From IMG/VR virus record IMGVR_UViG_3300036987_000471, positions 1 to 42,122 of that record: DNA of 42,122 nucleotides; one strand, 5' to 3'. Both the position numbers and the translations under genes were made by a program. Position 1 is the first letter of the stretch. Every line of letters begins with the position of its first letter. This DNA is from a virus (lineage: Duplodnaviria; Caudoviricetes). A model generated the notes under the pieces. The model made no database searches, was not told the DNA's origin, and saw only the letters and a program-made list of their open reading frames with translations. Shown piece by piece: positions 7,067 to 37,085 of the stretch.

Positions 7067-7115
7067 AGCCGGGCTATGTTAAAATTGCTGCATCAGAAAT
7101 TTGTGTTTAAAAGGC

Positions 7116-7241
7116 ACCTAACTACACTTGCGGCCGACGGCTGCGCTTGTCACGGTGCTTGCAGTTGGAAGGGATAGTAAACGTCGGTAGGAAAAGGCAA
7201 GCGTCGCGCCAGGCGCGTCGCGGTTGAAGCCAACGTTAGGC
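7116..7241 (+). other. Intact integron attC site (126 bp)
   Basis: Inverse core ACCTAAC (7116-7122), core GTTAGGC (7235-7241), and internal imperfect palindrome (GCGCTTG/CAGGCGC, GCTTGC/GCAAGC, CGGCCG/CGGTTG). Confidence 0.85.
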
Positions 7242-7259
7242 AATTCACACGGAGTTTCT

Positions 7260-8233: not shown

Positions 8234-8234
8234 C
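8228..8234 (+). other. attC inverse core only (GCCTAAC); rest of the site lost
   Basis: TGCCTAAC is the exact complement of the cassette start GTTAGGCA (7235-7242) and overlaps the stop codon, as is typical of gene cassettes. Confidence 0.6.
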
Positions 8235-8462
8235 ACTTATGATGTCCCCAGAATCAAGTGGGCGTAGAGATCTCTTCCGACTTTTTCGGTTCTTTGGCGT
8301 GAAGGCATAGGGCAGATCCCGACTTTGTTTCATGCGCGGGCGCAGGACGGATCCTGCACAAAACACCTATCGAGGGTCACGGGCCGGCGGTGCGTTAGCG
8401 CAGGAAAGCGCCCTGGAGGGGGTTCAGCGCAAGGCGGCTGGCTCAGCCGAGACTTTGACTGT

Positions 8463-8544
8463 AAGGGGTGCCTTCGCGCGCGGGCGGTTTTCTGCGCTGG
8501 GATCTCTTCGCGTGCTTGGATATGCGCTACTACATTGTTCTGAG
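8463..8544 (+). repeat. Leader repeat copy 2, with probable -10 (TACATT) for the R-M operon
   Basis: Same two blocks as 5425-5503; TACATT at 8531-8536. Confidence 0.65.
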
Positions 8545-11602: not shown

Positions 11603-12764
11603 GTTGAAGCCCGGCTGGACCCGCGTGCGCTTCGGCGACCTAGCCCATCACATTACCGACCGTGTGGACAACCCCTCCGAGGCGGGCGTAGAGCGCTATG
11701 TGGGCTTGGAACACCTCGACTCGGACAGCCTGACCATCCGCCGCTGGGGCACGCCGGACCAGGTGGAATCCACCAAGCTCCGCTTCCAACCCGGCGACAT
11801 CATCTTCGGCAAGCGCCGCGCCTACCAACGCAAATTGGCCGTCGCCGACGTCGAGGGCATCTGCTCGGCTCACGCCATGGTGCTGCGCGCCAAGCCCGGA
11901 GCTGTCCTGCCCGACTTTTTGCCCTTCTTCATGCAAAGCGATGTGTTCATGGAACGGGCGCAGTCGATCTCGGTAGGCTCCTTGTCGCCGACCATCAACT
12001 GGAAGACCCTTGCGTCAGAAGAGTTCGCGTTGCCGCCGCTGACCGAGCAGCAACGGCTACTTCAGCTAATTCAATCGGCTACACAAACCATATATGAGCT
12101 GTACAACTTAAACCAAGTTCTTAAGGTGCTTCGCGGTTCTTTAAGAGTGGAATATTTCGAAGATAAAGCGAGACACATTAGGCTCATTCGCGACTGTGTG
12201 GTTAATAACGGAGTTCAAATCGGACCATTTGGTGCCCAGCTGCATCAGTCTGACTATAGTGAGGAGGGCGTTCCGGTCATCATGCCGCAAAACATGATCG
12301 ATGACAAGGTACTAGTTGACGGCATCGCGCGCGTCCCTTTGGAGATTGCACGAAGATTGAGTGTCCATCAGGTCCAGGTTGGTGATATCCTTCTACCTCG
12401 TCGTGGTGAGCTTGATCGTCGTGCTTTGATTACTAGTGAGAATGATGGTTGGCTATGTGGAACAGGGTCAGTTCGAATCAGACTTGATCCATCAATACCT
12501 TCAGATCTGGCAGTTGAGTCACTTGCATCGCGGAAGTCAATGATGTGGTTGAACGCAAATGCCGTTGGCACGACGATGCAAAACATAAACACTTCAATCG
12601 TAGAGTCCATACCTCTTTCACTCCCATCATCTGAAGCGTGGGCTTATGCATCTCAGTTGTTTGGTTTTGTTAGGAGTGCTCTGTCTGCGGTAGAAGTACG
12701 GCGCGAGATGGCTATCAAACAAATACACAAGGCGGTGAACGGAGAAAACTCTGATGCCCTTTAA
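11595..12764 (+). CDS. hsdS: Type I R-M specificity subunit
   Basis: GWTRVRFGD start, two TRDs, LPPLTEQQR conserved region, GPFGAQL in TRD2. GGAGG RBS before ATG 11595. Confidence 0.92.
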   Translation: MSELKPGWTRVRFGDLAHHITDRVDNPSEAGVERYVGLEHLDSDSLTIRRWGTPDQVESTKLRFQPGDIIFGKRRAYQRKLAVADVEGICSAHAMVLRAKPGAVLPDFLPFFMQSDVFMERAQSISVGSLSPTINWKTLASEEFALPPLTEQQRLLQLIQSATQTIYELYNLNQVLKVLRGSLRVEYFEDKARHIRLIRDCVVNNGVQIGPFGAQLHQSDYSEEGVPVIMPQNMIDDKVLVDGIARVPLEIARRLSVHQVQVGDILLPRRGELDRRALITSENDGWLCGTGSVRIRLDPSIPSDLAVESLASRKSMMWLNANAVGTTMQNINTSIVESIPLSLPSSEAWAYASQLFGFVRSALSAVEVRREMAIKQIHKAVNGENSDAL

Positions 12765-15717
12765 TGAAGCCTCCACCGTCGAGACTCTCATCCGCGACCT
12801 CCTCTGCGGCGGCGTCACCCACCACACGGCCATCGGTCCCGGCTTGGCCCGTCGCGACGGCGCCCTCTCCGGCATGGGCTGGCACTACTTGGCGCTCCAG
12901 CACCTGCCCCGGCGCACCAATGATGTCTTCGTGGAGGCCTGGCTGCGCGAGGCGCTGATCCGGCTGAACCCGGAGATCGCCGCCCAGCCCGAGCGTGCCG
13001 ACGAGGTGCTCTACAAGCTGCGGGCCATTGTGCTGGCCGTGCGCAGCGACGGGCTCATCCGCGCCAACGAGGAACTGACCGCCTGGCTGCGCGGGGATCG
13101 CAGCATGCCCTTTGGCCCCGACCACCAGCACTGCGGCGTGCGCCTGATCGATTTCGAGACCCTGGAGAACAACGAGTACGTTGTCACCACCCAGTTCAGC
13201 TTCCGCGCCGGCCCCGCCGAGCGCCGCGCCGACCTGGTGCTGCTGGTTAACGGGCTGCCGCTGGTCCTGATCGAGGCCAAGACGCCCGTGCGCCAGGCCG
13301 TCAGCTGGCTGGACGGCGCCCTGCAGGTCCACGACGACTATGAGGTCAACGTCCCCGAGCTCTTCGTCGCCAATGTCTTCAGCGTGGCCACCGAGGGCAA
13401 GGAGCTGAAGTACGGCAGTGTACGCATGCCCGTCAACCTCTGGGGTCCCTGGCGCGAGGACGAGGCCGTGCCGGGCACGCTGGCCGGACTCCAGGCGGCG
13501 GTGGGCGGACTGCTGCGGCCCGCCGTGGTGCTGGACATCCTGGCCCACTTCACCCTCTTCGCCACGGACAAGAAGAAGCGCCGCATCAAGGTGGTCTGCC
13601 GCTACCAGCAGTACCAGGCCGCCAACCTCATCGTCCAGCGCGTGCTGGCTGGCCGGCCTCGCAAGGGCCTCATTTGGCACTTCCAGGGATCGGGCAAGAG
13701 CCTGCTGATGGTCTTCGCCGCGCAGAAGCTGCGCCTGCAGCCGGCGCTGGGGAACCCGGCGGTGATCATCGTGGTGGACCGCATCGATCTGGACGCGCAG
13801 ATCAGCAGCACCTTCCACGCCAGCGACGTGCCCAACCTGGTCAAGGCCGAGACCCGCGCCGACCTCCAGCGGCTGCTGCAGCAGGACACGCGCAAGATCA
13901 TCATCGCCACCATCCACAAGTTCGGTGAGGCCGAGGGACTGCTCAACGACAGCGAGCGGCTGGTGGTGCTGGTGGACGAGGCCCACCGCACCCAGGAGGG
14001 CGACCTGGGCATCAAGATGCGCACGGCCCTGCCCAATGCCTTCCTCTTCGGCCTGACCGGCACGCCCATCAATCGCCGCGACCGCAACACCTTCTATGCC
14101 TTCGGCGCCGATGAAGACCGTCACGGCTACCTGAGCCGCTACGGCTTCGAGGAGTCCATCCGCGACGGCGCCACCCTGCCCCTCACCTTTGAGCCGCGCC
14201 TGGTGGAGCTGCACATCGACAAGGCCGCCATCGACGAGGCCTACGCCGCGCTAACGGGCGAGCTAAGCGACTTGGACAAGGACAACTTGGCCAAGACCGC
14301 TAGCCGCATGAGCGTGCTGGTAAAGGCCCCGGAGCGCGTGCAGGCCATTTGCACAGACATCGCCATGCACTTCCAGGAGAAGGTGGCCCCCAATGGCTTC
14401 AAGGGCATGGTGGTGACCTTCGACCAGGAGTGCTGCCTGCTCTACAAGGCGGCGCTGGACCAGCTCCTGCTCCCGGAGGCCAGCGAGGTGGTGATCTCCG
14501 CCACGGGCAGCGACCCGCGCTTCCGACCCTACGACCGCGGCCGCGACGAGGAGGAGCGCCTGCTGGACCGCTTCCGCGATCCCAATGATCCGCTCAAGCT
14601 GCTCATCGTTACGGCCAAGCTTCTGACGGGCTTCGACGCGCCCATCCTGCAGGCCATGTACCTGGACAAGCCCCTGCGCGACCACACGCTGCTGCAGGCG
14701 GTCTGCCGCACCAACCGCACCTACGGTAACCAGAAGAGCCACGGCCTCATTGTGGACTACCTGGGCGTCTTCGACGATATCGCCAAGGCCCTGGAGTTCG
14801 ACGAGCAGGGCTTCCGCAAAGTGATCTCCAACATCGAGGCGCTCAAGGATCAACTCGCAACGGCGGTGCAGAAGTGCATGGCCTACTTCCCCGGCGTGGA
14901 CCGCGCCCAGACGGGCTACGAGGGACTGATGGCGGCCCAGGAGTGCCTGCCCAACAACACGGTGCGCGACGCCTTCGCCGCGGACTTCAGCGTGTTGCAG
15001 CAGCTCTGGGAGGCAATCTCGCCCGACCCCATTCTCACCCGGTTCGAGGTGGACTACAAGTGGCTCTGCCAGGTCTACCAATCCGTCCAGCCCACCTCGG
15101 GCGCGGGCAAGCTGATTTGGCACAGCCTGGGCGCCAAGACCATCGAACTCATCCACCAGAACGTCCACGTGGACGCTGTGCGCGATGATCTGGAAGCCCT
15201 GGTGGTGGATGCTGAGTTGCTTGAAGCCGTGCTGGATACGCCGGACACGGGCAAGAAGGCCAAGGAGTTCGAGCTGAAGCTCACGGCCCGCCTGCGCAAG
15301 CACATGGGCATCCCGCGCTTCAAACGGCTCTCGGAGCGACTGGAGGCGCTGAAGGAGAAGCACGAGCAGGGGCTACTCAACAGCATCGATTTCCTCAAGC
15401 ACCTACTGGAGCTGGCTCAAGAACTCCTGCAGGCCGAGCAAGAAACGCCGCCCCAGGAAGACGAGGACCGCGGCCGTGCCGCCCTGACGGAGCTGTTCCA
15501 GCAGGTGCGAAATGAGCAGACCCCGGTCATCGTGGATCGCGTGGTGGCTGACGTGGACGAGATCGTCAAGCAGGTGCGCTTCGCCGGCTGGCAGCACACC
15601 AGCCAGGGCGAGCGCGAGGTCAAGCAGGCCCTGCGCCGCACGCTGCTGAAGTACCGCCTGCACCAGGACCTGGAGCTGTTCGGGCAGGCTTACGGTTACA
15701 TCCGGCAATACTATTGA
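12754..15717 (+). CDS. hsdR: Type I R-M restriction subunit
   Basis: DLVLLVNGLPLVLIEAK nuclease motif, HFQGSGKS Walker A, DEAH, LTGTP, LLTGFDAP, QAVCRTNR. Confidence 0.95.
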   Translation: MPFNEASTVETLIRDLLCGGVTHHTAIGPGLARRDGALSGMGWHYLALQHLPRRTNDVFVEAWLREALIRLNPEIAAQPERADEVLYKLRAIVLAVRSDGLIRANEELTAWLRGDRSMPFGPDHQHCGVRLIDFETLENNEYVVTTQFSFRAGPAERRADLVLLVNGLPLVLIEAKTPVRQAVSWLDGALQVHDDYEVNVPELFVANVFSVATEGKELKYGSVRMPVNLWGPWREDEAVPGTLAGLQAAVGGLLRPAVVLDILAHFTLFATDKKKRRIKVVCRYQQYQAANLIVQRVLAGRPRKGLIWHFQGSGKSLLMVFAAQKLRLQPALGNPAVIIVVDRIDLDAQISSTFHASDVPNLVKAETRADLQRLLQQDTRKIIIATIHKFGEAEGLLNDSERLVVLVDEAHRTQEGDLGIKMRTALPNAFLFGLTGTPINRRDRNTFYAFGADEDRHGYLSRYGFEESIRDGATLPLTFEPRLVELHIDKAAIDEAYAALTGELSDLDKDNLAKTASRMSVLVKAPERVQAICTDIAMHFQEKVAPNGFKGMVVTFDQECCLLYKAALDQLLLPEASEVVISATGSDPRFRPYDRGRDEEERLLDRFRDPNDPLKLLIVTAKLLTGFDAPILQAMYLDKPLRDHTLLQAVCRTNRTYGNQKSHGLIVDYLGVFDDIAKALEFDEQGFRKVISNIEALKDQLATAVQKCMAYFPGVDRAQTGYEGLMAAQECLPNNTVRDAFAADFSVLQQLWEAISPDPILTRFEVDYKWLCQVYQSVQPTSGAGKLIWHSLGAKTIELIHQNVHVDAVRDDLEALVVDAELLEAVLDTPDTGKKAKEFELKLTARLRKHMGIPRFKRLSERLEALKEKHEQGLLNSIDFLKHLLELAQELLQAEQETPPQEDEDRGRAALTELFQQVRNEQTPVIVDRVVADVDEIVKQVRFAGWQHTSQGEREVKQALRRTLLKYRLHQDLELFGQAYGYIRQYY

Positions 15718-24000: not shown

Positions 24001-25605
24001 TTGATGGACAAGGCAATGGCACTCAAGAAGCCCAAAGTGGACCGCCTATCTGCGGACGAGATCTCCCTCGCCCAGATCCTGCTGGATCCGGTGGCCTTTG
24101 CCGCGGCTTTCCTGACGCAGCTGGATGGCGAGACGGGCGGCCAGCCCATGGCCCTCTGGCCCCACCAGCAGGAGGATGTGCGGGACACGGAGCGGCAGAT
24201 CGTCCACCAGGATGGCCGGGGCGTGGGCAAGACCGTGGACATCGTGGTCCAGGTCCTGCACTACGGGGTCACGGCCCGGAACGGCCGCATGCTGGTGACG
24301 GCGCCCAACGACGGCCACTGCAACAAGGTCATCGAGGAGGTGGAGGCCCACCTGCAGAACAGCGAGTTCCTGCTGGGCCTGGTGGCCGTGGACCAGAACG
24401 GCCGGCACCGCATCACGCGCAAACCCTACTACCAGATGCACTGGAAGAACGGCACGATCATCTACATCCGCCCGGCCGGCCCCACGGGCAAGAGCGTGCG
24501 CAGCTTGCACTGCGACCGCGTGCTGGTGGACGAGGCCGCCTGGTACCCGGAGCCCGCCTGGCGGGCCCTGCGCCGCGTGCTCAACCGCGGCGGCCAGATG
24601 CGCGCCTATTCCAACCCGAACGGCCTGCGCAACACGACCTACTACCGCATCACGACGGACAAGAAGAGCGGCTGGAAGGTCTACCACTGGCCCAGCTGGA
24701 TCGTGCCGGGCTGCACGGAGGACCACATCGAGGCGGACGCCCGATTCTTCGGCGGCCGCGACACGGCGGGCTTCCAGCACGAGGTGGCGGGCGTGCACGG
24801 CGCGCCGTCCTATGCGGCCTTCAACATCCGCCAGCTCCAGGCCAGCCTGCGGAAGCTGGAGAAGCTTTACAAGGTGATCCGCCTGGATGGGGAAGAGTTC
24901 GATGGCCTGCAATCCGTGGACGAAGCGACGGATCGCCTGAGCGGGGTGCTCGATGGCTTGGAGGAGAACCGCGGCGTGTACTGGCTGGGCGGCGACCTGG
25001 GCTACACCAACGACCCCAGCGAGCTGACGGTCTGGCTGGACGACGAGCGCGGGCGCCTGGTGCCTGTCCTCCGAGTCCACAACGAGCACCTGCCCTACAC
25101 CTACCAGGCGGCGCTCATCGCCCTCCTTGACGACCACTTCGACTTTGCCGGGCTGGGCCTGGATGCCGGCTCCAACGGGCTGTCCGTGGAGCACATCCTC
25201 ACCACCGAGGACCGCTACACGGATCACCAGTTCGCCCATCGGCTGGAGACCTACGACTTCGGCGGCAGCCTGACCACGGGCTACGATACGCAGGGCCGGC
25301 CCAAGACCCAGCGCGTCAAGGAGTACATGACCAGCCTGATCAATGGGCGCTTGGCGAATCGGACCATTCTCTTCCCCGCGGGCGAGGTGGATCCGGACTG
25401 GGAGGACCAGTTCACCACCCAGACCTACTCGCAGAGCCAGGCGAGCCGGATCGTGTACTCCAAGGGCAATGACCATATCATCGACTCCACCCGCTGCGCC
25501 GTCCTGCGCAAGGAGCGCGAGCTCTTTAAGCAGTTGGTGGACGATGGGTCGATGGGCGAGGCCGAGTTCGTGATGCCGGTCCTGACCGGCGACATCTTCG
25601 TGTAG
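24001..25605 (+). CDS. terL: Terminase large subunit
   Basis: Walker A GRGVGKT, Walker B VLVDEAA, C-motif SNP, RNase H-like GGDLG...D...DHIIDS. Start may be ATG 24004 or 24016. Confidence 0.88.
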   Translation: MMDKAMALKKPKVDRLSADEISLAQILLDPVAFAAAFLTQLDGETGGQPMALWPHQQEDVRDTERQIVHQDGRGVGKTVDIVVQVLHYGVTARNGRMLVTAPNDGHCNKVIEEVEAHLQNSEFLLGLVAVDQNGRHRITRKPYYQMHWKNGTIIYIRPAGPTGKSVRSLHCDRVLVDEAAWYPEPAWRALRRVLNRGGQMRAYSNPNGLRNTTYYRITTDKKSGWKVYHWPSWIVPGCTEDHIEADARFFGGRDTAGFQHEVAGVHGAPSYAAFNIRQLQASLRKLEKLYKVIRLDGEEFDGLQSVDEATDRLSGVLDGLEENRGVYWLGGDLGYTNDPSELTVWLDDERGRLVPVLRVHNEHLPYTYQAALIALLDDHFDFAGLGLDAGSNGLSVEHILTTEDRYTDHQFAHRLETYDFGGSLTTGYDTQGRPKTQRVKEYMTSLINGRLANRTILFPAGEVDPDWEDQFTTQTYSQSQASRIVYSKGNDHIIDSTRCAVLRKERELFKQLVDDGSMGEAEFVMPVLTGDIFV

Positions 25606-25614: not shown

Positions 25615-27135
25615 GTGAAGCTGTTCAGCCGCGGGCTCTTTCCCGTCCGCCAAACGGCGGAAGGCGTGGTCGAGGTGGGCGACGAGATGGCGGCCCAGGC
25701 GGCCACGATCGATCCCTTCGCCAGCGAGACTTCCGTGGACGGGATCCCCAAGGAGTGGCACGAACGCGGCGCCAAGGCTTGGGAGTACTTCCAGCAGGAA
25801 CCCATCGTCAACAACTGCATCAACGCCTGGCGGACCCTGGCCGTGGGGGATGACTTCACCCTCCTGGCCAGCACGCCCGAGCTGCAGAAGGACGTGGATG
25901 CCCTGAAGCGACGCTTGAACCTCAAGCGCTGGTTGAAGGACCAGCTGCTGCAGCTCTTGACCAAGGGCGAGGCGGCGGCGTTCAAGGAGTACGGCGGGGA
26001 GGAGAAGGCCAAGAACGAGGAGGGCAAGCCGCTCTATCAGGACTTTGAGCGCATCAAGGTCCTGAACCCCCTGCTGCTGGAGACGACGGTGAAGGATGGG
26101 CAGGTGGTGAAGGTGCGCTCCTTCCTGCAGGACGAGGGTGGCCTGCCCCGGGATCACACGGACGTGTCGCTGGAGCAGTTCCGGCGCTGGATGTGGGACG
26201 CGCCCGACTTCGCCGAGCACGGCACCAGCATGGTGCTGCCGGCCTTCGAGTCCATCGAGCTTCTGCGCGACTACCGGCGCGCCGAGCGCGCCATCGCCAA
26301 GCGCTGGGCCACGCCCATCCGCTTCATCAAGGTGGGTGGCCAGTTCGGCAAGACCGTGGTCATGCCCAAGCCCAGCATGCTGAAGGACATCAAGAAGATC
26401 GTCGATGGCATGAGCGCGCGCCAGGGCGCCGTCGTGCCCTTCTACGTGACCATCGAGACCTACGGCGCCGAGGGCGAGACCCTGAAGACCGAGGAGAAGG
26501 TGAGGGAGGCCAAGAGCGACGTCATCGTCGCCATGGGATTTACACGCGCCCTGGTCTCCGGGGACGGGGCCAACTTTTCCACGGCCAGCCTGGGCTTCGC
26601 CAAGATCCAGCTCATGCTGTCGGACCTAAGGGACATGGCGCGCGACATGCTCCAATGGGTCCTGGACGATTGGCTGGCCATGCGCGGCAAGGAAGGCGAG
26701 AGCCTGCACATCGCCTTCCCGGAGATCGACCTGTCCGCCGGCGCCGACCAGCGCAAGGTCCTGGTGGACCTCTACGACCGTGGGCTCATCAGTGTGCGCA
26801 GCCTGCAGGCCATGATGGGCCTGTCCCCCGACATCGAGCAGGCGCAGATCGGGCGCGAGACCAAGCAGGTGATCGCGCCTCTGTCGCCCGGGGACATCGT
26901 GGGCCTGGCCCAGCAGGAGATGCTGACCCAGGACCAGGTGGCCTTCCTGCTCAACCTGGCGGAGCGGTTGAAGGGGGCGCCCAAGGAGGACCCAGGCGCC
27001 GCGGCGCCGGCGCCCCAGACGGGCGACGTGGCCGGGCTGTATCAGCAGGTGGACCAGCTTATCCGGGCGCGGGCCCGCACGCTTGCAATGGAGCGCGTCC
27101 AGGCCTTGGACGCCGCGGAGCCGCAGGCCGCCTGA
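25615..27135 (+). CDS. Portal protein
   Basis: AGGAGG RBS with GTG. 506 aa between TerL and MuF; HGTSMVLPAF and GDGANFSTA motifs are portal-like. Confidence 0.8.
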   Translation: MKLFSRGLFPVRQTAEGVVEVGDEMAAQAATIDPFASETSVDGIPKEWHERGAKAWEYFQQEPIVNNCINAWRTLAVGDDFTLLASTPELQKDVDALKRRLNLKRWLKDQLLQLLTKGEAAAFKEYGGEEKAKNEEGKPLYQDFERIKVLNPLLLETTVKDGQVVKVRSFLQDEGGLPRDHTDVSLEQFRRWMWDAPDFAEHGTSMVLPAFESIELLRDYRRAERAIAKRWATPIRFIKVGGQFGKTVVMPKPSMLKDIKKIVDGMSARQGAVVPFYVTIETYGAEGETLKTEEKVREAKSDVIVAMGFTRALVSGDGANFSTASLGFAKIQLMLSDLRDMARDMLQWVLDDWLAMRGKEGESLHIAFPEIDLSAGADQRKVLVDLYDRGLISVRSLQAMMGLSPDIEQAQIGRETKQVIAPLSPGDIVGLAQQEMLTQDQVAFLLNLAERLKGAPKEDPGAAAPAPQTGDVAGLYQQVDQLIRARARTLAMERVQALDAAEPQAA

Positions 27136-30100
27136 TGCCAGCCGCCGCCTGCAGGTGTGGCAGCCCGCATCCGCCGCTGCCCCGAGGAGAACTCCACCTG
27201 GAGGTGGAGGCCCTGCTCCTGCCCCTGGGCAGCCGGGCCCTCCTTTCCTACGCCCTCACTCAGCGGCAGGCCATTGAACAGGCCACGGCTCAGAGCCTGG
27301 CCAAGGCCGGCGCCTACTCGGACGAGGTCCTGGCCGGCAGTCTGAAGGCCCTGGACCGGGCGGCCAAGGATGTGAAGGCGCAGATCCTGGCCCTGGGGGA
27401 TCTCTCCCAGTTCGGCCCCGGCGCCCAGCCGGGCAAGTCCGTGCAGCTGGTGCGGCTGAAGGCCCTGGAGAAGCACCTGGCCCAGACGGCGGAGCAGCTG
27501 AAGCAGGATCTCACGCTGGCCTACCAGGGCATGACGGGGGACCTGGCCAAGGCCGGCATCGAAGGCAAACTCGCCCAGCTGGGCGCCCAGAAGCTGGGCG
27601 GTTACCAGGCCCTGGACCAGGCGGGCCGGGAGGCCTTGGCCGAGGCGGCTTTCTCCCTTGTCCCCACTGACGCCTTGGACTTCCTCTCGAACTACCAGCT
27701 GCAGCTCCTGGGCAAGCTCTCAGACGACCTCGTCGCCGGCGTCAAGGGGGTCGCGCAGGTGGGCATCGCCCAGGGCGAGGGCCCGGCCAAGATCGCCCGG
27801 CGCATCGGCGGCATCGTCAAGGACCCGGAGGAGTTCCGCCAGGCGGGCAAGACGGTGTTCAAGTCCGTGCAGCAGCGTGCCGAGCTGATCGCGAGAAGCG
27901 AGACCATGCGGGCTTACAACCAGGGCGCCAAGAAGTTTGAGGCCCAGATCGGGGTCAAGAGCGCGCGCTGGCTGACCGCCGGTGACGAACGGGAGTGCCC
28001 CGAATGTGGATCGCTGGACGGCAGGGAGTTCGATCTCCAGGACCTGCCTAGCCAGCCCCTGCACCCGGCGTGCCGCTGCACGCACGTGCCTGGTGGGTCT
28101 CTATCCCAGATCACGGACCTGGGCACCCTGGAGGCGCAGCTGGCGGACCAGGCGCTGGGGGACGGGGCCGTGCAGGAGGCGCTGAAGAGCGGGGACTACG
28201 GCAAGCTGACCATGGTCCAGCTGCGGGAGGTGGCCAAGGAGAAGGGCGTGTCCATTGCCCGCACCAAGGCGGACCGGCTTGTCATGCTGTCCGAGATGAC
28301 GGGGCACAGCGATTCGTGGCTGGCGGGACACACGCCTGTCGAGCTGGATGCGTGGTTCAAGAAGTACAAGATCGGGGCGCTGAAGACCAAGGACGAGCTG
28401 CTGTCCGCCATTTACAAGGCGGATCACGCCACGGATGCAGCCAAGGCGGCGGCGCTCAAGCAGGCGGAGGAGGCGGCCAAGAAGGCCAAGCAGGCGGCGG
28501 AGGAGGCTGCCAAGAAGACGGCGCTGGCGGACCAGGCTACGGCGGACTTTCATACGACGCTGGTCAAGCTGAAGGACCTGGAGGCGGATCCCGCCCAGTT
28601 CCAGGCCTTCCACCAGCAGTTGGACCAGCTGCTGGTGCATGTCCAGAAGCACCTGGAGATCCTGGGCCCGCAGAAGGCGGCGGATCTGGGAGGCTATCTG
28701 TCGAAGGCCCAGGACGCCTTCACTCTGAAGGTGGAGCTGACGGGCCAGTCGGCGCTGCGCGATGTCTTGAAGGCGGCAAAGGTCAAGAACTTCCAATGGT
28801 TCACGAAGGCCGAGACCGTCACCTACCTGACCCAGAAGCCCCTTCAGTCCAAGATCGCCGAGCAGGTGGCGGCCAAGGTGGCGGCGGCCAAGGAGGCGGC
28901 GAAGCTCAAGAAGGTGGCGCCGCCCGCCAAACCCGCCACGCCCAAACCGGCCGCTCCCAAGCCTGCCCCCAAGGCCACGCCCGCCGTCCAGGCGCGCAGC
29001 GCCGACGAGGCTTGGGAGGCCCTGAAGGCCGAGAATCCCTTCACCTTTCACAGCGACGCCAGCGAGCTGGGCGGCGTCCACACGAAGTACTTCTACACGG
29101 ACAAGGCCGGCGACAAGTGGCTGTTCAAGCCCATCGCCGAGGAGTTCCGTGCCTTTGGCGACGAGGTGGCCTACCTCATCCAGCGCGAGATCGACCCGGA
29201 CGCCATCGAGGTGCGGACCATCCGGCTGAAGGACATGCATGGTCGCATGCGCTCGGGATCGATCCAGAAGATGAAGCAGGGGCTCAAGGACCCCCACAGC
29301 TTCGAGAAGCTGGATCTGGCAGCCATCACGCCAGCCGAACTTGCGCAGATCCAGCGCGAGCAGGTGGTGGACTGGCTGATCTCCAATCACGACGGCCACG
29401 CGGGCCAGTTCCTGCGTGCGCGGGACGGCAAGGTCTATGGCATCGACAAGGGCCAGCTCTTCAAGTTTTTCGGCAAGGACAAGCTCTCCGTCGACTATGC
29501 GCCCAACGCCGGCGGGCGCTTCGACGAGCCCCTCATCAACAAGCTTCTGCGCGCCCACCGGGACGGGAAGATCAAGCTGGACCTGCGGGCCACCCAGGAG
29601 TGGATTAGGCGGGTGGAGGCGATTCCCGACGCCGCCTACCGCGAGATGCTCATGCCCTATGCCGGCCGGCGCTTCGCTGGTCAGCCGGGCGCCCTGGAGG
29701 ACTTCTTGCGGGCTGCCGTGGAGCGCAAGAACGCCCTCCGGGCGGACTTCGAGCGCTTCTATAGCGAGATCGAGTCGGCGCGGCTGGGGCGGAAGGTGTC
29801 CTTCCGCTTCGGCCAGGTGGTCGAGGAGGCGGCGCCGCCGCCGGCAGCTGATGGGGGCACGGCCTGGGCGCGGGGCAGCCGCGTCGACCTGAAGGAGGAG
29901 GTGAAGGTCATCCGTGAGTCCGGCTGGCAGGGGCGATCCCTGGCTGTGGACAAGGGCGACATCGAGGACCAGAACGTGCTGGTGCGCGAGGTATCCCTTT
30001 CGGGGGGCGGGAAGCGGACCACGCTGCAGTTCAAGATGCGACCGGACGCGGATCGAAACCTGGTGGCGTTTTTGGAAGCGAATGCCACGGGCGGGGATCT

Positions 30101-31634
30101 CTTGGTGCGATCGCCTGCTGATCCATACTGGGGCAGGGTTCTTGATGCTGTGAAAACGCTGAATCACCATGCGGCCAGCGATTTGAAGTTCAACGTGTCC
30201 AAGGTGGACTTGGCGCTGGACTTGCGGAAAGAGCTGCTAGCCCTTGGGAAGTCCTCCTCGCCGCTTGAAAGGGCGATGGCCAAGCGGTATCTGGCTATTT
30301 TGGATGATGTCGAGAAGGCAAGGGTCGCGCAGATCCAAGGGCGGGCGGCAACGATCCCGCAGGTCAGGCAGTACAAACCGACAGCCGAAGAGCTGCGGAA
30401 TGCGTCCAAGACCCCGCAGGCGCAAAAGGGCGATGGGATCCAAGTGAGGCGGCGGGAGCGGTGGACGGAGGACAAGACGACGATCCATGGAAAGCACGTG
30501 GAGGTCGTCGAGGACAATGTGCCGCTGACAGAGTTCTATCGTGGCGGGCTGCGAGACAACCTGCGCGAGTTTGAGATCGACTTGGGTGACGGAGTGACGG
30601 CTGTCTACAAGCCGTTTCAGAAGGAGTCCCTGCGGGAGACCTTGGTGCCGCGTCTGTCTGATGAGCGGGCGTTTGCCATGCAGGGCAGGATGACCGTCCG
30701 AATTGACGGCGCAGCAAGCGACACGGGCATTGCCAAGGCCATGGAGCGACTGAAGCGGCTGGGGATTGACGCAACGCCATCGACGGCGCTTGATGAAGAG
30801 CTGATGTACTTGCAGAAGACGGCCTATGCGGCTACGGTCGACAAGACTCCGGCTTTTGTCGCGGCAGCCGATCAGGCAAGAGAGGCAGGCAGCACCGAGG
30901 AGGCGGTCCGAATTTGGCGGGCTGCGTGGAGCAACCATCTTGGAGTGAAGGACGTCACGAAGCTACTGGACTATGACCCTGTCGGGGTGCATCAGATGGC
31001 GACCGCCACGGGGAAATCTGCCGGGGCTGGAACCCGCGTGCAGTACCGGTTTGATGTTGGGAAGGCGGTCATCGAGAAGGAGATGAAGGACTACGTCCTG
31101 ACCCACAAGATATACAGCGGGTCAATCCATGACTTTTTCGAGACCGTGCTGCCCACCAACAGGGCGTTCATTCCTACCGCAGAGCGGTTCAGCGTCGGGG
31201 TTCCCATTGGCGGCATGAGCCCGGGCCGGGACTTGGACACGGGGGGGGCGAGCTATTTTTTCACCAGGATCGCCAAGCGGGCCACCTTGAAGGAAAGCCG
31301 GATCCTGCTCAAGACCGAGATGCTTGGGCGAGCTGACGCCATCAGCTACAACACGGACAATTTCGGGAAAGTGATCGGCGACTTCGTAAGCATGGCCAGG
31401 CACACCACTCCGAAAGGGTGGAAGGCTTGCGTAAGGTCGGCAAGTAATGAGACTATTTTTAAAGGGACAATTCCAATTTTAGATAATCTTGAAGGCGTGT
31501 TTGTAAAGAGTCAGACAGAAAGAAATAGCTTGATTAATCTCTTTAAAAGGCACAACATTGAGGTGCTTCCGGACGGGCGAAAGATTGAGGATGTGATCGT
31601 GACGAATATGGCCAGTTTGAAGAGGACGCCGTGA
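27135..31634 (+). CDS. Large MuF (SPP1 gp7-like) minor head protein with HipA/PI3K-like kinase domain and putative ART-like C-terminal domain (~1499 aa)
   Basis: ATG overlaps the portal stop. MuF motif RAELIARSETMRAYNQG...RWLTAGDERECPECGSLDG...PLHPACRC. Kinase motifs LGG...WLFKP...E...DWLISNHDGHAGQF...GIDKG. Confidence 0.8.
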   Translation: MPAAACRCGSPHPPLPRGELHLEVEALLLPLGSRALLSYALTQRQAIEQATAQSLAKAGAYSDEVLAGSLKALDRAAKDVKAQILALGDLSQFGPGAQPGKSVQLVRLKALEKHLAQTAEQLKQDLTLAYQGMTGDLAKAGIEGKLAQLGAQKLGGYQALDQAGREALAEAAFSLVPTDALDFLSNYQLQLLGKLSDDLVAGVKGVAQVGIAQGEGPAKIARRIGGIVKDPEEFRQAGKTVFKSVQQRAELIARSETMRAYNQGAKKFEAQIGVKSARWLTAGDERECPECGSLDGREFDLQDLPSQPLHPACRCTHVPGGSLSQITDLGTLEAQLADQALGDGAVQEALKSGDYGKLTMVQLREVAKEKGVSIARTKADRLVMLSEMTGHSDSWLAGHTPVELDAWFKKYKIGALKTKDELLSAIYKADHATDAAKAAALKQAEEAAKKAKQAAEEAAKKTALADQATADFHTTLVKLKDLEADPAQFQAFHQQLDQLLVHVQKHLEILGPQKAADLGGYLSKAQDAFTLKVELTGQSALRDVLKAAKVKNFQWFTKAETVTYLTQKPLQSKIAEQVAAKVAAAKEAAKLKKVAPPAKPATPKPAAPKPAPKATPAVQARSADEAWEALKAENPFTFHSDASELGGVHTKYFYTDKAGDKWLFKPIAEEFRAFGDEVAYLIQREIDPDAIEVRTIRLKDMHGRMRSGSIQKMKQGLKDPHSFEKLDLAAITPAELAQIQREQVVDWLISNHDGHAGQFLRARDGKVYGIDKGQLFKFFGKDKLSVDYAPNAGGRFDEPLINKLLRAHRDGKIKLDLRATQEWIRRVEAIPDAAYREMLMPYAGRRFAGQPGALEDFLRAAVERKNALRADFERFYSEIESARLGRKVSFRFGQVVEEAAPPPAADGGTAWARGSRVDLKEEVKVIRESGWQGRSLAVDKGDIEDQNVLVREVSLSGGGKRTTLQFKMRPDADRNLVAFLEANATGGDLLVRSPADPYWGRVLDAVKTLNHHAASDLKFNVSKVDLALDLRKELLALGKSSSPLERAMAKRYLAILDDVEKARVAQIQGRAATIPQVRQYKPTAEELRNASKTPQAQKGDGIQVRRRERWTEDKTTIHGKHVEVVEDNVPLTEFYRGGLRDNLREFEIDLGDGVTAVYKPFQKESLRETLVPRLSDERAFAMQGRMTVRIDGAASDTGIAKAMERLKRLGIDATPSTALDEELMYLQKTAYAATVDKTPAFVAAADQAREAGSTEEAVRIWRAAWSNHLGVKDVTKLLDYDPVGVHQMATATGKSAGAGTRVQYRFDVGKAVIEKEMKDYVLTHKIYSGSIHDFFETVLPTNRAFIPTAERFSVGVPIGGMSPGRDLDTGGASYFFTRIAKRATLKESRILLKTEMLGRADAISYNTDNFGKVIGDFVSMARHTTPKGWKACVRSASNETIFKGTIPILDNLEGVFVKSQTERNSLINLFKRHNIEVLPDGRKIEDVIVTNMASLKRTP

Positions 31635-32137
31635 GCGATATCCGCGAAGAGGCCATTGCAGCATTCCAGCAATATTTGGACGCCCTTGGTGAGCCGTTTG
31701 GCTTCGGAGTGTGTGTGACGCCGCTGCAAGGGGGAGGGCGGATGTTCGGTTTCTATGCCGGGATCCGTGTTCTGTCGGCCACACCCATCTTTAACCGGGC
31801 GACGGGCGATATTGAGCGCTGGCGTCATTGGCTGCTCTTCGCCGAGATGAGCATCCTGGATCGATTCGGGTGCGGCCACCCCGTGCACTTCTTTGAGTGC
31901 GATGTGCAGAAGCAAGAGGGCCATCAGGTCGCGCTTCGTGAGGTGAAAGGAGTCTATTCGATTCTGGTGAACCGCAACGATCCCCACAGCCTGGACGAGC
32001 GGCAAGCGAGCATTTATGCCGCCTGGGATGAGACCGTGATGGAGGCGGGCGGGGTGGGCGCCCTTCGGGAGATTCTTGACCGGGCGGCGGCGGAGGTAAC
32101 CGACGAGCTGATTGCCACGGGGGAGATGAAGCCATGA
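31631..32137 (+). CDS. Hypothetical protein, candidate immunity protein 1 for the MuF toxin
   Basis: GTG overlaps the MuF stop (GTGA); GAGGA RBS; 168 aa. Immunity role inferred from position only. Confidence 0.55.
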   Translation: MSDIREEAIAAFQQYLDALGEPFGFGVCVTPLQGGGRMFGFYAGIRVLSATPIFNRATGDIERWRHWLLFAEMSILDRFGCGHPVHFFECDVQKQEGHQVALREVKGVYSILVNRNDPHSLDERQASIYAAWDETVMEAGGVGALREILDRAAAEVTDELIATGEMKP

Positions 32138-32448
32138 AGGTGCTCTGGTTCTACGTCTTCGACTTCCACCCGGATTCCACGCGCAAGGCGCCCATCGGCG
32201 CCTGGATCACGCAGGACGACCGCCTGGATTACGAGTTCAATGCGGCCTACCCGGATGACGAGGACATCCCCTCCGACCTCATCAACCGCATGCTGGAAGC
32301 CGGCGAGAAGCTGGTCAGCCGGGAGATGCTAGAGTATTGGCAGACCCACGTGGGCTATTATCGCAGTGCCGGTGAGATCCACGAGGAGGACGTGTCGGAC
32401 TACGGTGAGTTCCTGAAGCGCATAAGAGCAGCAATCAACCAGCCCTGA
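32134..32448 (+). CDS. Small acidic protein, candidate immunity protein 2
   Basis: ATGA overlap with the previous gene; 104 aa, acidic. Role inferred from position. Confidence 0.55.
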   Translation: MKVLWFYVFDFHPDSTRKAPIGAWITQDDRLDYEFNAAYPDDEDIPSDLINRMLEAGEKLVSREMLEYWQTHVGYYRSAGEIHEEDVSDYGEFLKRIRAAINQP

Positions 32449-32530
32449 TCCACCACTTATTTCTCAGACCTCTTGACATCTCCTCTCATGGGAGAGATCG
32501 TATCCCGCGACAATCATTCGCGGGACCCAG

Positions 32531-35092
32531 ATGTCTGGTCACACGTCCTTCCTGACGGTCGATGCCGCCCTCTTCCCTGAGCTGACCGCCCAGGGCGCTG
32601 GCGCGCCCACCCATGGTGTCCAGTACATCGGGAACAAGCGCAAGCTGCTGGACTGGATCCGGGAGCAGATCCCCGAGGGCGTCAAGACCGTGGTGGACGC
32701 CTTCGCCGGCGGCGGAAGCGTCAGCTACATGCTGAAGCGCGAAGGGTACCAGGTTCACTCCAACGACAGCCTGCACTGGCCCCATCACATCGCCCGGGCC
32801 GTGGTGGTCAACCAGACCGAGACGGTGACGGACGAGGAGATCGAAGCCCTCTGCCAGCCGAACCCCAAGGCGGGCACCTTCGTCCGGGACAACTACAAGG
32901 ACAAGTTCTGGAAGCCCGAGATCCACGGCGTCATCGACGAGGTGCGCGAGAACGTGGACACCCTGAAGGGCTTCAAGCGCGACATCGCCCTGGCCGCCCT
33001 GGGTGCCACCATGCTCTCGGCCCGCGGCTGGTTCCCGCAGTTCACCACCAGCAAGGTCTCGGAGGACGGCTACAGCCCCGAGCAGTTCCACAAGCGCCTG
33101 GGCGAGGTGATTCGGCGCCTTAACTCCATGGTCCAGGAGGGACCCACCTGCACGGCCCAGCGCCTGGAGGTGCGGGAGTTCCTGCCCAAGGTCAAGGCCG
33201 ACCTGGCCTATTTCGACCCACCCTACGTGACCGAGTTCAGCGCGGCCAACTACAGCGCCAACTACCACGTGGTCGAAGCGGTGATGGTGAAGGGCGAGGG
33301 GCGGAATCCCAAGGCCGACAGCGTGACGAAGATGGAGAAGACCCAGGCCGACCTGACCAAGGCCAACATCCTGGAGTTCTTCCAGGAGGTCTTCGCCGCC
33401 GCCGACCACATCCCGGACTGGCTGCTCTCCTACCGCGACCACAGCTATCCCAGCGAAGCCGAGATGCAGGAGCTCTTCGAGAAGGCCGGGCGCGAGTTCC
33501 GCCTGGAGACGAAGGACTTCTCCTACGCCAGCCTGGCCGGCAAGCGCCGGGACGAGGATCCGGCCAAGGCCAAGGAATACCTGTTCGTGGGTACGGCCAA
33601 AGAGGCCAAGGCGCCCACCGAGCCCAAGGAGGATGACGTGAAGCCCAAGACCCCCGTGGACGCCGCGGCCATCGAGGCCATGCAGGCCGCCGCCGCCCTT
33701 CAGTCCCGCATGACCGCGCGCCTGGAGGTGGGGCGCCTGGTGGCCGTGGCCGAGGAGAAGCCCGAGGGCGAGGAGGACCATGAGATCGCCTTCGTCCTGT
33801 GCCATGCCGGCACCAACCGGAACGGTGACCACTTCACGGTGGAGGAGCTGAAGCAGGCCGCGCCGTCGGCCGCCGGCGTCAAGATCAATCTGAAGCACGG
33901 CCAGAAGGCCCAGGACATCGTGGGCAAGACCGAGTCCGCGGCCTTCGAGGACACGGACGGCGGCCGAGTGGTGTGCGCCGGCAAGCTGTTCACGGGCTCC
34001 GACGAGCTGGCCGCCAAGGCCAGGAAGCTCATCCACGAGGAGCTCATCTCCAAGGTCTCCATGGAGTGCTCCTACGCCAAGGGCGAGTGCTCCATCTGCG
34101 GCCACGCCCACACGGCCGTGGCGGACCGCTGCGATCACCTGAAGAAGCAGAAGGGGCAGCAGGTCGAGGGCAAGGACTGCTTCGAGATCCTGCACGGCGT
34201 GACGTTCACGGGCGCCGGCCTGCTGGAGGGCTACGAGCCCGCCGACCCCAAGGCCGACATCACGTCCATGGGGGATGGCCCGGACGGCCGCCTGCGCGCC
34301 ACGTCCTACGGCTACGGCGAGATGGGCGCGCGCCCCGAGAACGTCAAGCAGGTCCTCATCCAGCAGGAGATCCGGGACGACCTGTGGCGGGCGCAGGACG
34401 CCTTTGGTCAGGTGGTGGCCACGCTCGTGGGGGATCTCACCGCGGGCAAGGCCACGCTGGACGAGACGAGCACGAAGATCCGCCAGGCCGCCACCGACAC
34501 GGCGGATCGCGTGATCCAGATCCTCACGGGCATCAGCAAGGAGACGGACGACATGAAGGACACGAAGGCCCAGGCGGCTACCGACAAGCCGCTGAAGGAC
34601 ATGACGCAGGCCGAGCTCCTGCAGGTCGCGGAGCGGCTGTCGGTCCAGAACGAGGAGCTGGTCGGCAAGATCCAGGCGGCCGAGGAGGAGAAGGCCAAGA
34701 CGGCGGCCCAGCAGGCGGCCGAAGCCCTGGTGGCTCTGATGGAGCAGAAGGGCCGGCCCTTCGCGGACGACGCCGCGCGCCAGGCGGAGGTGGACAAGCT
34801 GGCCGCTCTCTCCGACGAGGCCCGCAAGGCCGTGGAGGACACGTGGAAGGCCCTGCCCGACAAGGACCCTGCTGCGGAGCCCACCGAGGAGGAGAAGGCG
34901 GCTGCCGCCGCGGCTGCGGGTGGCGGCACGGCCAGCGCGTCGGGGCAGGGCACGCTGCGCGCCAACGCCAGCAAGGCGCCGGTCACGGGGAGCGATCCCG
35001 AGCCCAAGTCCCTGACGGACAAGCTCAAGGCCGGCCTGGAGGCCATCTACCAGGACCGCCTGGCCCATGAGCGGGGCGAGTCCGTCGATTGA
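32531..35092 (+). CDS. Fusion protein: D12-class (Dam/FokI-like) DNA adenine methyltransferase + prohead protease + scaffold
   Basis: QYIGNKRKLLDWI, VVDAFAGGGSVS, ND and YFDPPY in the first ~360 aa. Then GTNRNGDHF...INLKH...IVG...KVSMEC..CSICGH...CDH...PADPKADI (prohead-protease-like). Then an acidic, Ala-rich coiled coil. No stop codon between the parts. Confidence 0.8.
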   Translation: MSGHTSFLTVDAALFPELTAQGAGAPTHGVQYIGNKRKLLDWIREQIPEGVKTVVDAFAGGGSVSYMLKREGYQVHSNDSLHWPHHIARAVVVNQTETVTDEEIEALCQPNPKAGTFVRDNYKDKFWKPEIHGVIDEVRENVDTLKGFKRDIALAALGATMLSARGWFPQFTTSKVSEDGYSPEQFHKRLGEVIRRLNSMVQEGPTCTAQRLEVREFLPKVKADLAYFDPPYVTEFSAANYSANYHVVEAVMVKGEGRNPKADSVTKMEKTQADLTKANILEFFQEVFAAADHIPDWLLSYRDHSYPSEAEMQELFEKAGREFRLETKDFSYASLAGKRRDEDPAKAKEYLFVGTAKEAKAPTEPKEDDVKPKTPVDAAAIEAMQAAAALQSRMTARLEVGRLVAVAEEKPEGEEDHEIAFVLCHAGTNRNGDHFTVEELKQAAPSAAGVKINLKHGQKAQDIVGKTESAAFEDTDGGRVVCAGKLFTGSDELAAKARKLIHEELISKVSMECSYAKGECSICGHAHTAVADRCDHLKKQKGQQVEGKDCFEILHGVTFTGAGLLEGYEPADPKADITSMGDGPDGRLRATSYGYGEMGARPENVKQVLIQQEIRDDLWRAQDAFGQVVATLVGDLTAGKATLDETSTKIRQAATDTADRVIQILTGISKETDDMKDTKAQAATDKPLKDMTQAELLQVAERLSVQNEELVGKIQAAEEEKAKTAAQQAAEALVALMEQKGRPFADDAARQAEVDKLAALSDEARKAVEDTWKALPDKDPAAEPTEEEKAAAAAAAGGGTASASGQGTLRANASKAPVTGSDPEPKSLTDKLKAGLEAIYQDRLAHERGESVD

Positions 35093-35148
35093 CCATTCTC
35101 CCACCCGGTGATGCCGGGGCGGTTTTCACCAGCTAGAAGGAGCGCATC

Positions 35149-35550
35149 ATGTACAACAATTCCCACCCCGGCATCGAGTTCGGCGACGGCGTCCTGAAAG
35201 GGCCGGGCACGCCGGGCCAGGTGCTGAGGAGCGTCGGCAACAACGAGTTCTCCGTGGTCGCCGATGCCGCCCACGTCCCCGCCGGCATCCTGAAGCGGGC
35301 GGACAAGGACTGCGCCGCCCAGGGCACCAACGACACCACCCCCTGCGTGGTGGACATGGGGGACTTCGTCTTCCAGACGGACCAGTTCACGGGCACGCCC
35401 GCGGCCGGCACCCTTCTCACCTTCGACGCCACCACGGCCAAGTTGAAGGCGGCCACTGCGGGCACCAAGATCGTGGCCATCGTGCTGTCCCTGGATGGCA
35501 GCGAGCTCACCGCCCGTTGGACGAACCACGGCCAGGTCGTTCCGTCCTGA
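35149..35550 (+). CDS. Probable head decoration/cement protein
   Basis: AAGGAG RBS; 133 aa, Gly/Ala/Thr-rich, between scaffold and capsid genes. Confidence 0.6.
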   Translation: MYNNSHPGIEFGDGVLKGPGTPGQVLRSVGNNEFSVVADAAHVPAGILKRADKDCAAQGTNDTTPCVVDMGDFVFQTDQFTGTPAAGTLLTFDATTAKLKAATAGTKIVAIVLSLDGSELTARWTNHGQVVPS

Positions 35551-35593
35551 CCCGGGGCATGATCGGCAGGCATCAAGCAAGGAGAATTCCGAC

Positions 35594-36457
35594 GTGAAGA
35601 CGAACAGCACCAAGGACCCTGAGTTCCTGGCCGCCATGGGCGCGCTGATGCAGGAGTCCACGCGCACGGACCAGGGCCTTCACGCCCTGGCCGAGTCCGT
35701 GGTCTCGGTGGTCAAGATGGAGATCGACCGCAAGAACATCGTGCCCCTGGTCCTGACCGAGACCCAGCTGAAGGCCGGCGAGGAGTCCAAGCACGCCAAG
35801 CGCCGGGGGCAGCGCGCCCACTACATCGGCGTGGGTGGCCAGCCCCATCGCCAGGAGGTGAACCAGGACGAGATCGTCCACTTCCCGATCTTCCGCCTCC
35901 ACTCCAACCCCTCCATCGACGTCACGGATCTCGACCACGGCAACGTGGGCAAGCTGACTGAGCTGCAGACCGAGGCGGCCAGCGAGATCCGCAACAAGCT
36001 GAACGCCAAGGTGGTGGCGCTCCTGTCCGCCGCCGCGGCCCTTGCGCCCGAAACCAACGTGGCCAGTGCGACGGGCGGCAAGCTCACCGACGTGGCGCTG
36101 GGCACCATCATCAGCCGCATCAACGACAAGGAGCTCAACGCCCGCTGGATCCTCCTGCGCGGCGGCCGCCTCATCGACCTCAAGGACTTCAACCTGGACC
36201 CCGAGTCCCGGCGCGAGTTCATCGAGAAGGGCGTGCTGAACCGCTTCGGCGGGGCGGGCCTCCTCAACACGGCCTCCATGGGCGCCAACGAGGTGATCGT
36301 CCTGCCGGACCACGAGATCGGCAAGTACGACATCCGCACGCCGCTGAAGGTCGATCCCCAGAAGGCCGGCTTCCGCGTGGGCTTCCTGACCTACCACGAG
36401 TGCGCCATGGGCATCACGCGGCCCGACCTGGTCTACAAGATCGTCATCACGGGCTAG
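35594..36457 (+). CDS. Major capsid protein (HK97 fold, 287 aa)
   Basis: AAGGAG RBS with GTG 35594. Position, size and C-terminal GFLTYHECAMGITRPDLVYKI fit a capsid protein. Confidence 0.7.
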   Translation: MKTNSTKDPEFLAAMGALMQESTRTDQGLHALAESVVSVVKMEIDRKNIVPLVLTETQLKAGEESKHAKRRGQRAHYIGVGGQPHRQEVNQDEIVHFPIFRLHSNPSIDVTDLDHGNVGKLTELQTEAASEIRNKLNAKVVALLSAAAALAPETNVASATGGKLTDVALGTIISRINDKELNARWILLRGGRLIDLKDFNLDPESRREFIEKGVLNRFGGAGLLNTASMGANEVIVLPDHEIGKYDIRTPLKVDPQKAGFRVGFLTYHECAMGITRPDLVYKIVITG

Positions 36458-36533
36458 GCCCCGGGGCGAGGACCTGCCGCCGGCCGGGCGTGTGCCTGGC
36501 CGGCATTCGCATCGATTGGATCTGGAGGACCCC

Positions 36534-37085
36534 ATGCCGCGCGTGCGAGCCCGTCACACCATCGTGGTCATCGGCGACCACGTGTTCCATGTCGATCAGG
36601 CCCGGTCCTTCCCGGGGAGCGTGCCGCCCGAGGTGGCGGCGCGCACGGACCTCCTGGAGATCCTGGACGACGACGGCCACCCCTTGCCCATGGGCCTGAC
36701 GGCCGATGGCACTCTCCGACCGGGCGAGGGCGAAGGCCAGGACGAGGGCGAGGGCGAAGGCCAGGGCCCGGCCCAGGACCCATCGGATCCGGATCTGGGC
36801 GACGGATCCGGCACGCCGGGCGCCACGGATGGCACGGACGATGTCACCGATGACACGCTGGATCCGGGCGGCTCGGAGGATGAGGATGACTCGGCCACGA
36901 AGCATGTGACCCTGCTCACGGTGCCCGACGAGGACACCGAGGACGAGGGCGGCGGGGAGGCGGATCCCTTTGGGGATGCGCCGAACGCCGGCGAGCGGGA
37001 GGAGACCGGTCCTGACCATGCTCCGCCCCCGGCTCAAGCCCCGGCTCCGCGGGCTGGGCGGGGCGGCCGCGGCAACCGCCGGTAG
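36534..37085 (+). CDS. Hypothetical protein with long acidic disordered tail
   Basis: GGAGG RBS; D/E/G-rich low-complexity region after the first ~60 aa. Confidence 0.6.
   Translation: MPRVRARHTIVVIGDHVFHVDQARSFPGSVPPEVAARTDLLEILDDDGHPLPMGLTADGTLRPGEGEGQDEGEGEGQGPAQDPSDPDLGDGSGTPGATDGTDDVTDDTLDPGGSEDEDDSATKHVTLLTVPDEDTEDEGGGEADPFGDAPNAGEREETGPDHAPPPAQAPAPRAGRGGRGNRR

Follow-up and report, generated by a model that had tools for sequence, protein, structure and literature searches.

An adenine methyltransferase fused to the predicted prohead protease and scaffold of a tailed-phage lineage: a candidate capsid-loaded enzyme

A methyltransferase, a predicted prohead protease and a scaffold share one reading frame

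The DNA studied here (the window) comprises the 42,122 nucleotides of the IMG/VR virus record IMGVR_UViG_3300036987_000471 (Duplodnaviria; Caudoviricetes). Its head operon contains a single open reading frame (ORF) on the plus strand, 32531-35092, which runs without an internal stop through 853 codons and in which a D12-class N6-adenine methyltransferase (MTase) precedes a predicted prohead protease and a scaffold. The gene lies between the terminase-portal-MuF genes and the major capsid gene, an order that is kept in relatives. A sequence-only reading of the window had described a complete MTase (DAFAGGG at 32696, DPPY at 33215) that continues stop-free into a protease-like domain and a scaffold within the head operon; coordinates, profile and fold agree with this description, and so does the operon position. 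The parts of the gene are the following.

32531..35092, plus strand: full-length ORF (leader, D12 MTase, linker, prohead protease, helical segment, scaffold)
32531..32611, plus strand: N-terminal leader, residues 1-27, with low predicted local distance difference test score (pLDDT); a related leader occurs across the family
32612..33598, plus strand: D12-class (Dam-fold) N6-adenine MTase, residues 28-356
33626..33640, plus strand: candidate internal start, AAGGAGG followed after 5 nt by GTG (V370), for a 484-amino-acid protease-scaffold without the MTase
33656..33751, plus strand: candidate autoprocessing sites VDAAA (376-380), MQAAA (384-388) and LVAVA (403-407), from motif enrichment in linkers
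33776..34273, plus strand: prohead protease, residues 416-581, with a predicted T4 gp21/herpes assemblin fold
34328..34546, plus strand: helical segment between protease and scaffold, residues 600-672
34538..35092, plus strand: likely nested scaffold gene, AAGGAG then ATG 34553 (M675), 179 amino acids

The MTase domain is matched by Pfam PF02086 over residues 32-245 (E 1e-20; 74.9 bits against a cut-off of 22), and the best Protein Data Bank (PDB) matches of its model in Foldseek are E. coli Dam, T4 Dam and DpnM; the whole-protein model returned MTase matches only. With 32.3 bits against a cut-off of 114.85 in the NCBIfam dam model (TIGR00571), the domain is not Dam proper. DAFAGGG represents motif I (beginning at D56) and DPPY motif IV (beginning at D229); D56, F58, G60 and D229-Y232 are invariant in 31 aligned rows, and both motifs are intact in all MTase domains of 27 family representatives, including both domains of tandem forms. 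Across three groups of close relatives, dN/dS amounts to 0.035-0.20 for the MTase and to 0.04-0.17 for the protease, values which indicate that the MTase is under purifying selection, as is the protease. Word counts in 19 loci gave no candidate target site. No cognate endonuclease gene was found beside the MTase, whose neighbors are head genes and two small ORFs without a family match (a cryptic nuclease is conceivable), and no helicase domain was found in the fusion protein, which does not show the DarB-type combination of a gamma-class NPPY MTase, LPD36 and a SWI2/SNF2 helicase.

Modeled alone, the protease domain reached a pLDDT of 92.7. Its model aligns with T4 gp21 (5jbl; Z 11.4, root-mean-square deviation 2.5, 126 aligned residues) and with herpesvirus proteases at Z scores from 10.6 (varicella-zoster, 1vzv) down to 7.6, the next unrelated fold scoring 6.8; the top ten Foldseek matches were all herpes proteases or gp21, in weak agreement. 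A PDB sequence search found no relative of this domain, so that the assignment rests on the fold search, which supports the prohead-protease-like domain that had been proposed from the letters of the DNA. Pfam Peptidase_S78 does not match the window protein and matches 11 of 31 relatives weakly (best E 3e-4). A putative triad of H456 (33896), S510 (34058) and D572 (34244) does not vary among 31 fused rows and remains conserved at 90% or more when distant rows are added, and an insert with C520, C523, C534 and H536 likely binds zinc. Distant relatives include gp77 of Rhodococcus phage E3, annotated as a prohead protease, and gp19 of phage G, named a head maturation protease (PMC12484599).

Relatives share a leader of the pattern F-x-T-D...L-x-F-L-L-E-A. 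The helical segment is found in the window's clade and a few other relatives and is missing from most, and the scaffold part consists of a coiled coil and a C-terminal helix, with an LRANA motif at residues 809-813. The profile of PHROG 27806 spans residues 26-577, that is MTase and protease together (E 6e-148).

The fusion is conserved among prophages of many phyla

Contigs from three DNA runs, one of which may be the source sample itself, cross the MTase-protease junction gap-free, over 33562-33825 (X1, X2) and over 33562-33917 (X9). Neither a lost stop nor a misassembly, the two risks that the sequence-only reading had seen at 33590-33640, is apparent in them. Among 16 indel rows over the contigs, all 12 rows listed fall outside the ORF. 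An apparent skip of 33380-33742 in contigs was distrusted, as it rests on 21 letters. All three domains are partly covered by RNA contigs of run X14, although expression level and starts cannot be read from them.

The MTase part and the protease part both matched the same 111 of 112 homologous clusters; 44 clusters have two DPPY motifs. When loci were fetched with the protease as the only query (the best 80 of 160 plus the best 80 of 164 hits, scanned with patterns taken from fused members), an intact MTase was found in frame in 144 of 160, with one copy in 81 and two in 63; the other 16 comprise seven loci at a contig edge, six with a partial or broken MTase and three without any. The conserved fusion for which the earlier reading had suggested a search is thus present. 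A split arrangement, with an intact MTase gene ahead of a distinct protease gene that lacks an MTase, was seen in none of these 160 loci. Two loci (L105, L191) have the first MTase in another frame than the second MTase and the protease, and a third (L101) is broken near the MTase start; these breaks are either decay or errors. In an unbiased library, the 33 closest representatives at 50% identity divide into 19 with an MTase, 13 without and one fragment, and among the other 117 representatives listed an MTase is present in one fragment only. Fused MTases, single or tandem, form two main subgroups in addition to the window's clade. Judged from these sequences, the fusion design is widespread, in prophages of many phyla.

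Nested starts predict three proteins from one gene

The Shine-Dalgarno (SD) sequence before the full-length ATG 32531 is weak (-4.0 kcal/mol), whereas those before GTG 33638 (-11.4 kcal/mol) and before the scaffold start ATG 34553 (-8.5 kcal/mol) are strong. This architecture recurs: all 14 loci of the window's clade, with 12 distinct linkers, carry a strong SD and a start in the MTase-protease linker (GTG in 11, ATG in 3; 16-30 codons past the MTase), and the full-length start, in the 13 loci where it is present, ranges from -3.0 to -5.7 kcal/mol. The true starts of portal and sheath have the same look as this linker start, and in six other genes 4 of 4278 codons are start sites with such a strong SD. 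Outside the clade a strong linker start was found in one of 24 representatives only, so that the protease is probably made there as a fusion only. The scaffold is preceded by a predicted strong SD and start in 23 of the 27 family representatives.

Three nested proteins are therefore likely made from the window's gene, as far as the start signals can tell. With strong inner starts and a weak full-length start, the scaffold can be expected to be abundant, the protease-scaffold less so and the full-length fusion scarce, and in the window's clade the MTase probably rides on a minority of the protease molecules. The fusion noted in the sequence-only reading has stood, with regard both to its conservation and to the protease fold; what that reading missed is that two likely strong starts, GTG 33638 for the protease and ATG 34553 for the scaffold, lie within the gene. 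The spacer between the MTase and the internal start is open in all 14 loci of the clade, in seven length variants without a stop or frameshift. This supports a functional link between MTase and protease, because a stop or frameshift in the spacer would be free if the link were idle, yet all lengths are in frame.

A candidate cleavage motif marks the domain borders

The motif [LMIV]-x-[AST]-x-A is present in 25 of 26 MTase-protease linkers (500 shuffles: mean 10.9, maximum 18) and in 19 of 27 leaders (mean 5.4, maximum 12), at a density of 3.2 per 100 residues as compared with 0.24 within the MTase. In an unsupervised scan, each half of the data placed hydrophobic-x-A-x-A in the top five patterns of its spacing, and its count was the highest. 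Among 30 further representatives, the motif stands before the protease in 12 of 14 fused proteins and in 10 of 12 segments ahead of a small cargo domain (0 of 1000 shuffles), and also before the protease in 8 of 13 unfused cases. The window protein has motif sites at 376-407 and at 809-813. L-x-A-x-A at the domain borders may be the cleavage site of the protease. LRALA in the N-terminus of the capsid protein was set aside as a cut site; it probably lies within a helix.

The slot in front of the protease accepts other domains

The position before the protease also takes a domain of about 85 residues that starts with WEET or WDET, in one or two copies and with or without MTases. It was seen in P0121, P0130-P0132, P0140, P0147 and the inter-MTase region of P0020, and the Atlas clusters closest to it contain small hypothetical phage proteins. 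Another type of insertion, a domain of about 130-170 residues, sits between the internal start and the protease in the linkers of P0008, P0138, L083 and L192. In L164, L256, P0010, P0011 and P0013 the MTase is 61% and the protease 89% identical to the window's; by this comparison the MTase module looks swapped, perhaps for one with a different target.

Traceable free copies of MTases from the window's clade reside in head-less elements or are remnants. Of the free MTases P0405 and P0267, which resemble split forms of the fusion, P0405 stands in an element that passes directly from the pre-terminase region to the MTase, and within 20 kb nothing there matches a terminase, portal or protease; two copies in G012 are remnants. 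For P0267 the searches turned up no DNA. Loci L271 (G013:C275), L272 and L273 (G012) are akin to the window's 17-23.6 kb region and then jump to the MTase without a terminase, portal or protease match; they are possibly head-less derivatives or satellites. The free-standing sister MTases P0294, P0296, P0299 and P0300 have short, very basic N-terminal leaders.

Genomic neighborhood, lineage and hosts

The head genes flanking the fusion are listed here.

24001-25605, plus strand: terminase large subunit (upstream)
25615-27135, plus strand: portal (upstream)
27135..31634, plus strand: MuF protein, 1499 amino acids, with a long C-terminal cargo including a kinase-like domain
within 35149..36457, plus strand: conserved 133-amino-acid gene in decoration-protein position, without a family match
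within 35149..36457, plus strand: HK97-fold major capsid protein, likely start GTG 35594

No second protease gene was found among the head-operon proteins scanned, and no sigma-70 promoter passed a scan of 31500-36600. In this stretch of the operon the genes leave a single gap, 32450-32530, where inspection by eye shows the hexamer TTGACA and a pair of short inverted repeats; it did not pass the promoter scan. The kinase-like domain of MuF matches HipA_C of Pfam weakly (E 0.008), has no PDB match and has a homolog in 64 of 160 scanned loci; about 600 further MuF residues are without assignment, and the length of MuF is about 300 amino acids in some relatives and 1400-1800 in others. The two small ORFs that follow MuF (31631-32137 and 32134-32448; no family match) could be immunity genes. 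Elsewhere in the window, a Type I restriction-modification cluster (8592-15717, plus strand; two hsdM, hsdS, hsdR) lies beside a low-GC block at 5500-8500.

The closest named homologs (88-89%) come from Candidatus Delongbacteria genomes, and the runs containing the DNA are groundwater and coal metagenomes. A relative on a closed Syntrophus chromosome (L141) is a temperate myovirus with serine recombinase, LexA-like repressor, sheath and baseplate; over 63 kb it aligns at 90% DNA identity with a locus from Zixibacteria (L148), and the Desulfobulbus and Kiritimatiella fusions are 98% identical. Some metagenome bins are perhaps misassigned, while the cross-phylum pairs include isolates and closed chromosomes. 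The 1291-amino-acid form with two MTases is 94-100% identical over records of Desulfobacterota, Nitrospiraceae, Ozemobacter, Anaerolinea, Phycisphaerae and Zixibacteria (L128, L129, L133, L136, L138, L141-L144, L148, L152; L235-L244), an apparent cross-phylum host range. No cultured phage with the fusion was found, none of 50,697 phage records covering 80% of it; cultured lysogens among the matches are Syntrophus buswellii, Desulfosarcina alkanivorans, Desulfosarcina widdelii, Desulfobulbus rhabdoformis and Kiritimatiella glycovorans. We found no publication on the Kiritimatiella prophage in the literature searched.

Relation to known head-loaded enzymes and nested protease genes

Nested protease/scaffold genes are known from lambda (C/Nu3), Mu (I/Z) and herpesviruses (UL26/UL26.5). 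The window's gene resembles them in that a protease of the same fold is followed by an in-frame scaffold with an internal start; it differs from them in the intact enzyme, unrelated to assembly, that stands in front, and in the likely third start that its clade adds between enzyme and protease.

Enzymes fused to head proteins, among them the capsid peptidase, are predicted to be packaged, and assemblin-like peptidases at the C-termini of polyvalent or head-fused proteins have been suggested to act in their processing; fusions of Nudix domains to the capsid-processing peptidase are also reported (PMC5512222, PMC9503650). As far as those sources were covered, the polyvalent methylase of Iyer combines a gamma-class MTase with a SWI2/SNF2 helicase and LPD36, whereas the enzyme described here is a Dam-fold D12 MTase on the operon's own protease-scaffold. 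The Dar proteins of P1 are packaged in the head (PMC12810830). DarB is likewise a predicted adenine methylase, one that is carried in the head and protects phage DNA from restriction, as the fused MTase may do; unlike the fusion, it is a separate methylase-helicase of about 2000 amino acids loaded through DarA/Hdf (PMC12810830, PMC5512222). T4 gp21, which has the same protease fold, trims IPI and Alt, core proteins which both remain in the head and of which IPI is injected and one is an anti-restriction protein; unlike the fusion, the T4 cargo in the account consulted is separately encoded and includes no methyltransferase (PMC9958956). Hia5, Hin1523 and Nme1821 of Mu-like prophages, by their description, are also Dam-related DPPY enzymes and stand in place of the protective mom, whereas they are free, about 280 amino acids long and non-specific (PMC3299994).

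PHROG 27806 ('DNA methyltransferase', 798 positions) covers the fusion under a label that names the MTase only, and databases call the fusion proteins 'DNA adenine methylase', with the protease overlooked. We found no description of a D12 MTase-protease-scaffold fusion in the mostly open literature searched, although the supplements of Iyer 2017 may list one. The fusion can be regarded as real and conserved, and as a probable variant of head-packaged enzyme cargo, to which the three likely starts of the window's clade are new here.

What the fused methyltransferase may do

We favor a reading in which the MTase is loaded into the capsid, freed by the protease and methylates the packaged phage DNA, and we place its probability at about 0.45; the loading of the fusion into the procapsid, taken by itself, is likely. 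By this reading the weak start would yield few 853-amino-acid copies, and the strong starts would yield the 484-amino-acid protease-scaffold and the 179-amino-acid scaffold. All forms share the scaffold C-terminus and would co-assemble with the capsid protein, as lambda C/Nu3-type genes and T4 (PMC9958956) suggest. During maturation the protease would cut L-x-A-x-A sites between the domains and leave a folded MTase of about 40 kDa in the shell. S-adenosylmethionine might then diffuse in, so that the trapped enzyme could methylate incoming DNA during packaging, and virions might leave the cell pre-marked against restriction in a next, often unrelated, host; these last two steps are speculative. 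A more general proposal, which we hold tentatively and consider rather doubtful as a whole, is that the protease N-terminus is a programmable cargo bay for zero to two MTases and other domains, dosed by the nested starts and cut at L-x-A-x-A, with DNA methylated only in the capsid or after ejection, and that this helps one lineage to cross phyla.

Several findings weigh against methylation in the capsid. In the window's clade, head assembly can do without the MTase, given the strong internal protease start. The conservation of the linker SD is itself partly confounded, because in this GC-rich gene (Lys AAG 65/66, Glu GAG 74/80) K-E-D codons yield an SD-like string by default. The locus scans favor fusions, since they took best hits only and used patterns from fused members, and the cleavage motif, chosen by eye before testing and re-tested on a set that overlaps the first, is a lead only. 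Palindromes of 6 bp are still avoided (mean observed/expected 0.76 in 19 loci), so that any protection is not blanket. The cargo is absent from 13 of the 33 closest representatives, and on a protease tree of 92 rows (19 fragments excluded) MTase presence changes 13 times, at least six of them forced by supported branches. Finally, L257 has an unfused protease and encodes an MTase of the same clade separately, upstream of the terminase; the MTase's job is thus apparently doable from the cytoplasm. Conserved as the fusion described in the sequence-only reading is, its cargo has therefore turned out to be optional.

One alternative, which we regard as rather unlikely, is an ordinary late orphan MTase that acts in the cytoplasm on replicating phage DNA, ahead of assembly or independently of it; the fusion would lend only late timing and dosage, and copies in the capsid would be idle or digested. 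The repeated loss of the cargo, the free gene just before the terminase in L257 and the head-less elements of G012 and G013 that retain the MTase or a remnant speak in its favor, and Mu-like prophages provide known cases of protective adenine MTases that act late (PMC3299994). It leaves unexplained, however, why the frame is open in 14 of 14 loci with a separate protease start, why a split tandem pair is lacking in 160 loci and why the same motif recurs at the domain borders.

An ejected effector is a less probable alternative: the freed MTase would stay in the mature head, be injected with the DNA and, like DarB of P1, methylate host DNA or else the phage DNA that enters or has just been replicated. 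Marking after entry would be in a race with the nuclease of the host, a race that is avoided if the DNA is marked in the producer cell, and the fusion is without the helicase partner described for DarB-type MTases (PMC5512222). On such logic only, we rank methylation at packaging above ejection.

That the MTase has a non-catalytic or structural task, binding DNA in the head, filling the core or keeping the protease silent up to the cut that removes the MTase, appears very improbable. Such a task would accord with the small domains without enzymatic character that occupy the same slot singly or in pairs and with T4 gp21, whose own N-terminus blocks it until it has cleaved itself (PMC9958956); the retention of motifs I and IV in every MTase domain of the 27 representatives and the low dN/dS argue against it. 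A private stop-loss or assembly error is ruled out for practical purposes by the 111 of 112 clusters matched by both parts, the 160-locus survey and the independent contigs that span the junction.

Implications

For annotation, proteins filed as plain 'DNA adenine methylase' also carry a predicted protease. A tolerant N-terminal slot on the prohead protease could serve for loading proteins into capsids, and the cultured lysogens among the records make virion proteomics and methylome comparison feasible now. Should capsid loading and methylation hold true, the fusion would represent a route of DNA modification distinct both from cytoplasmic orphan MTases and from DarB of P1, one in which the assembly protease delivers an enzyme to a closed compartment, and it would offer a testable reason for the presence of near-identical prophages of one lineage in several phyla.

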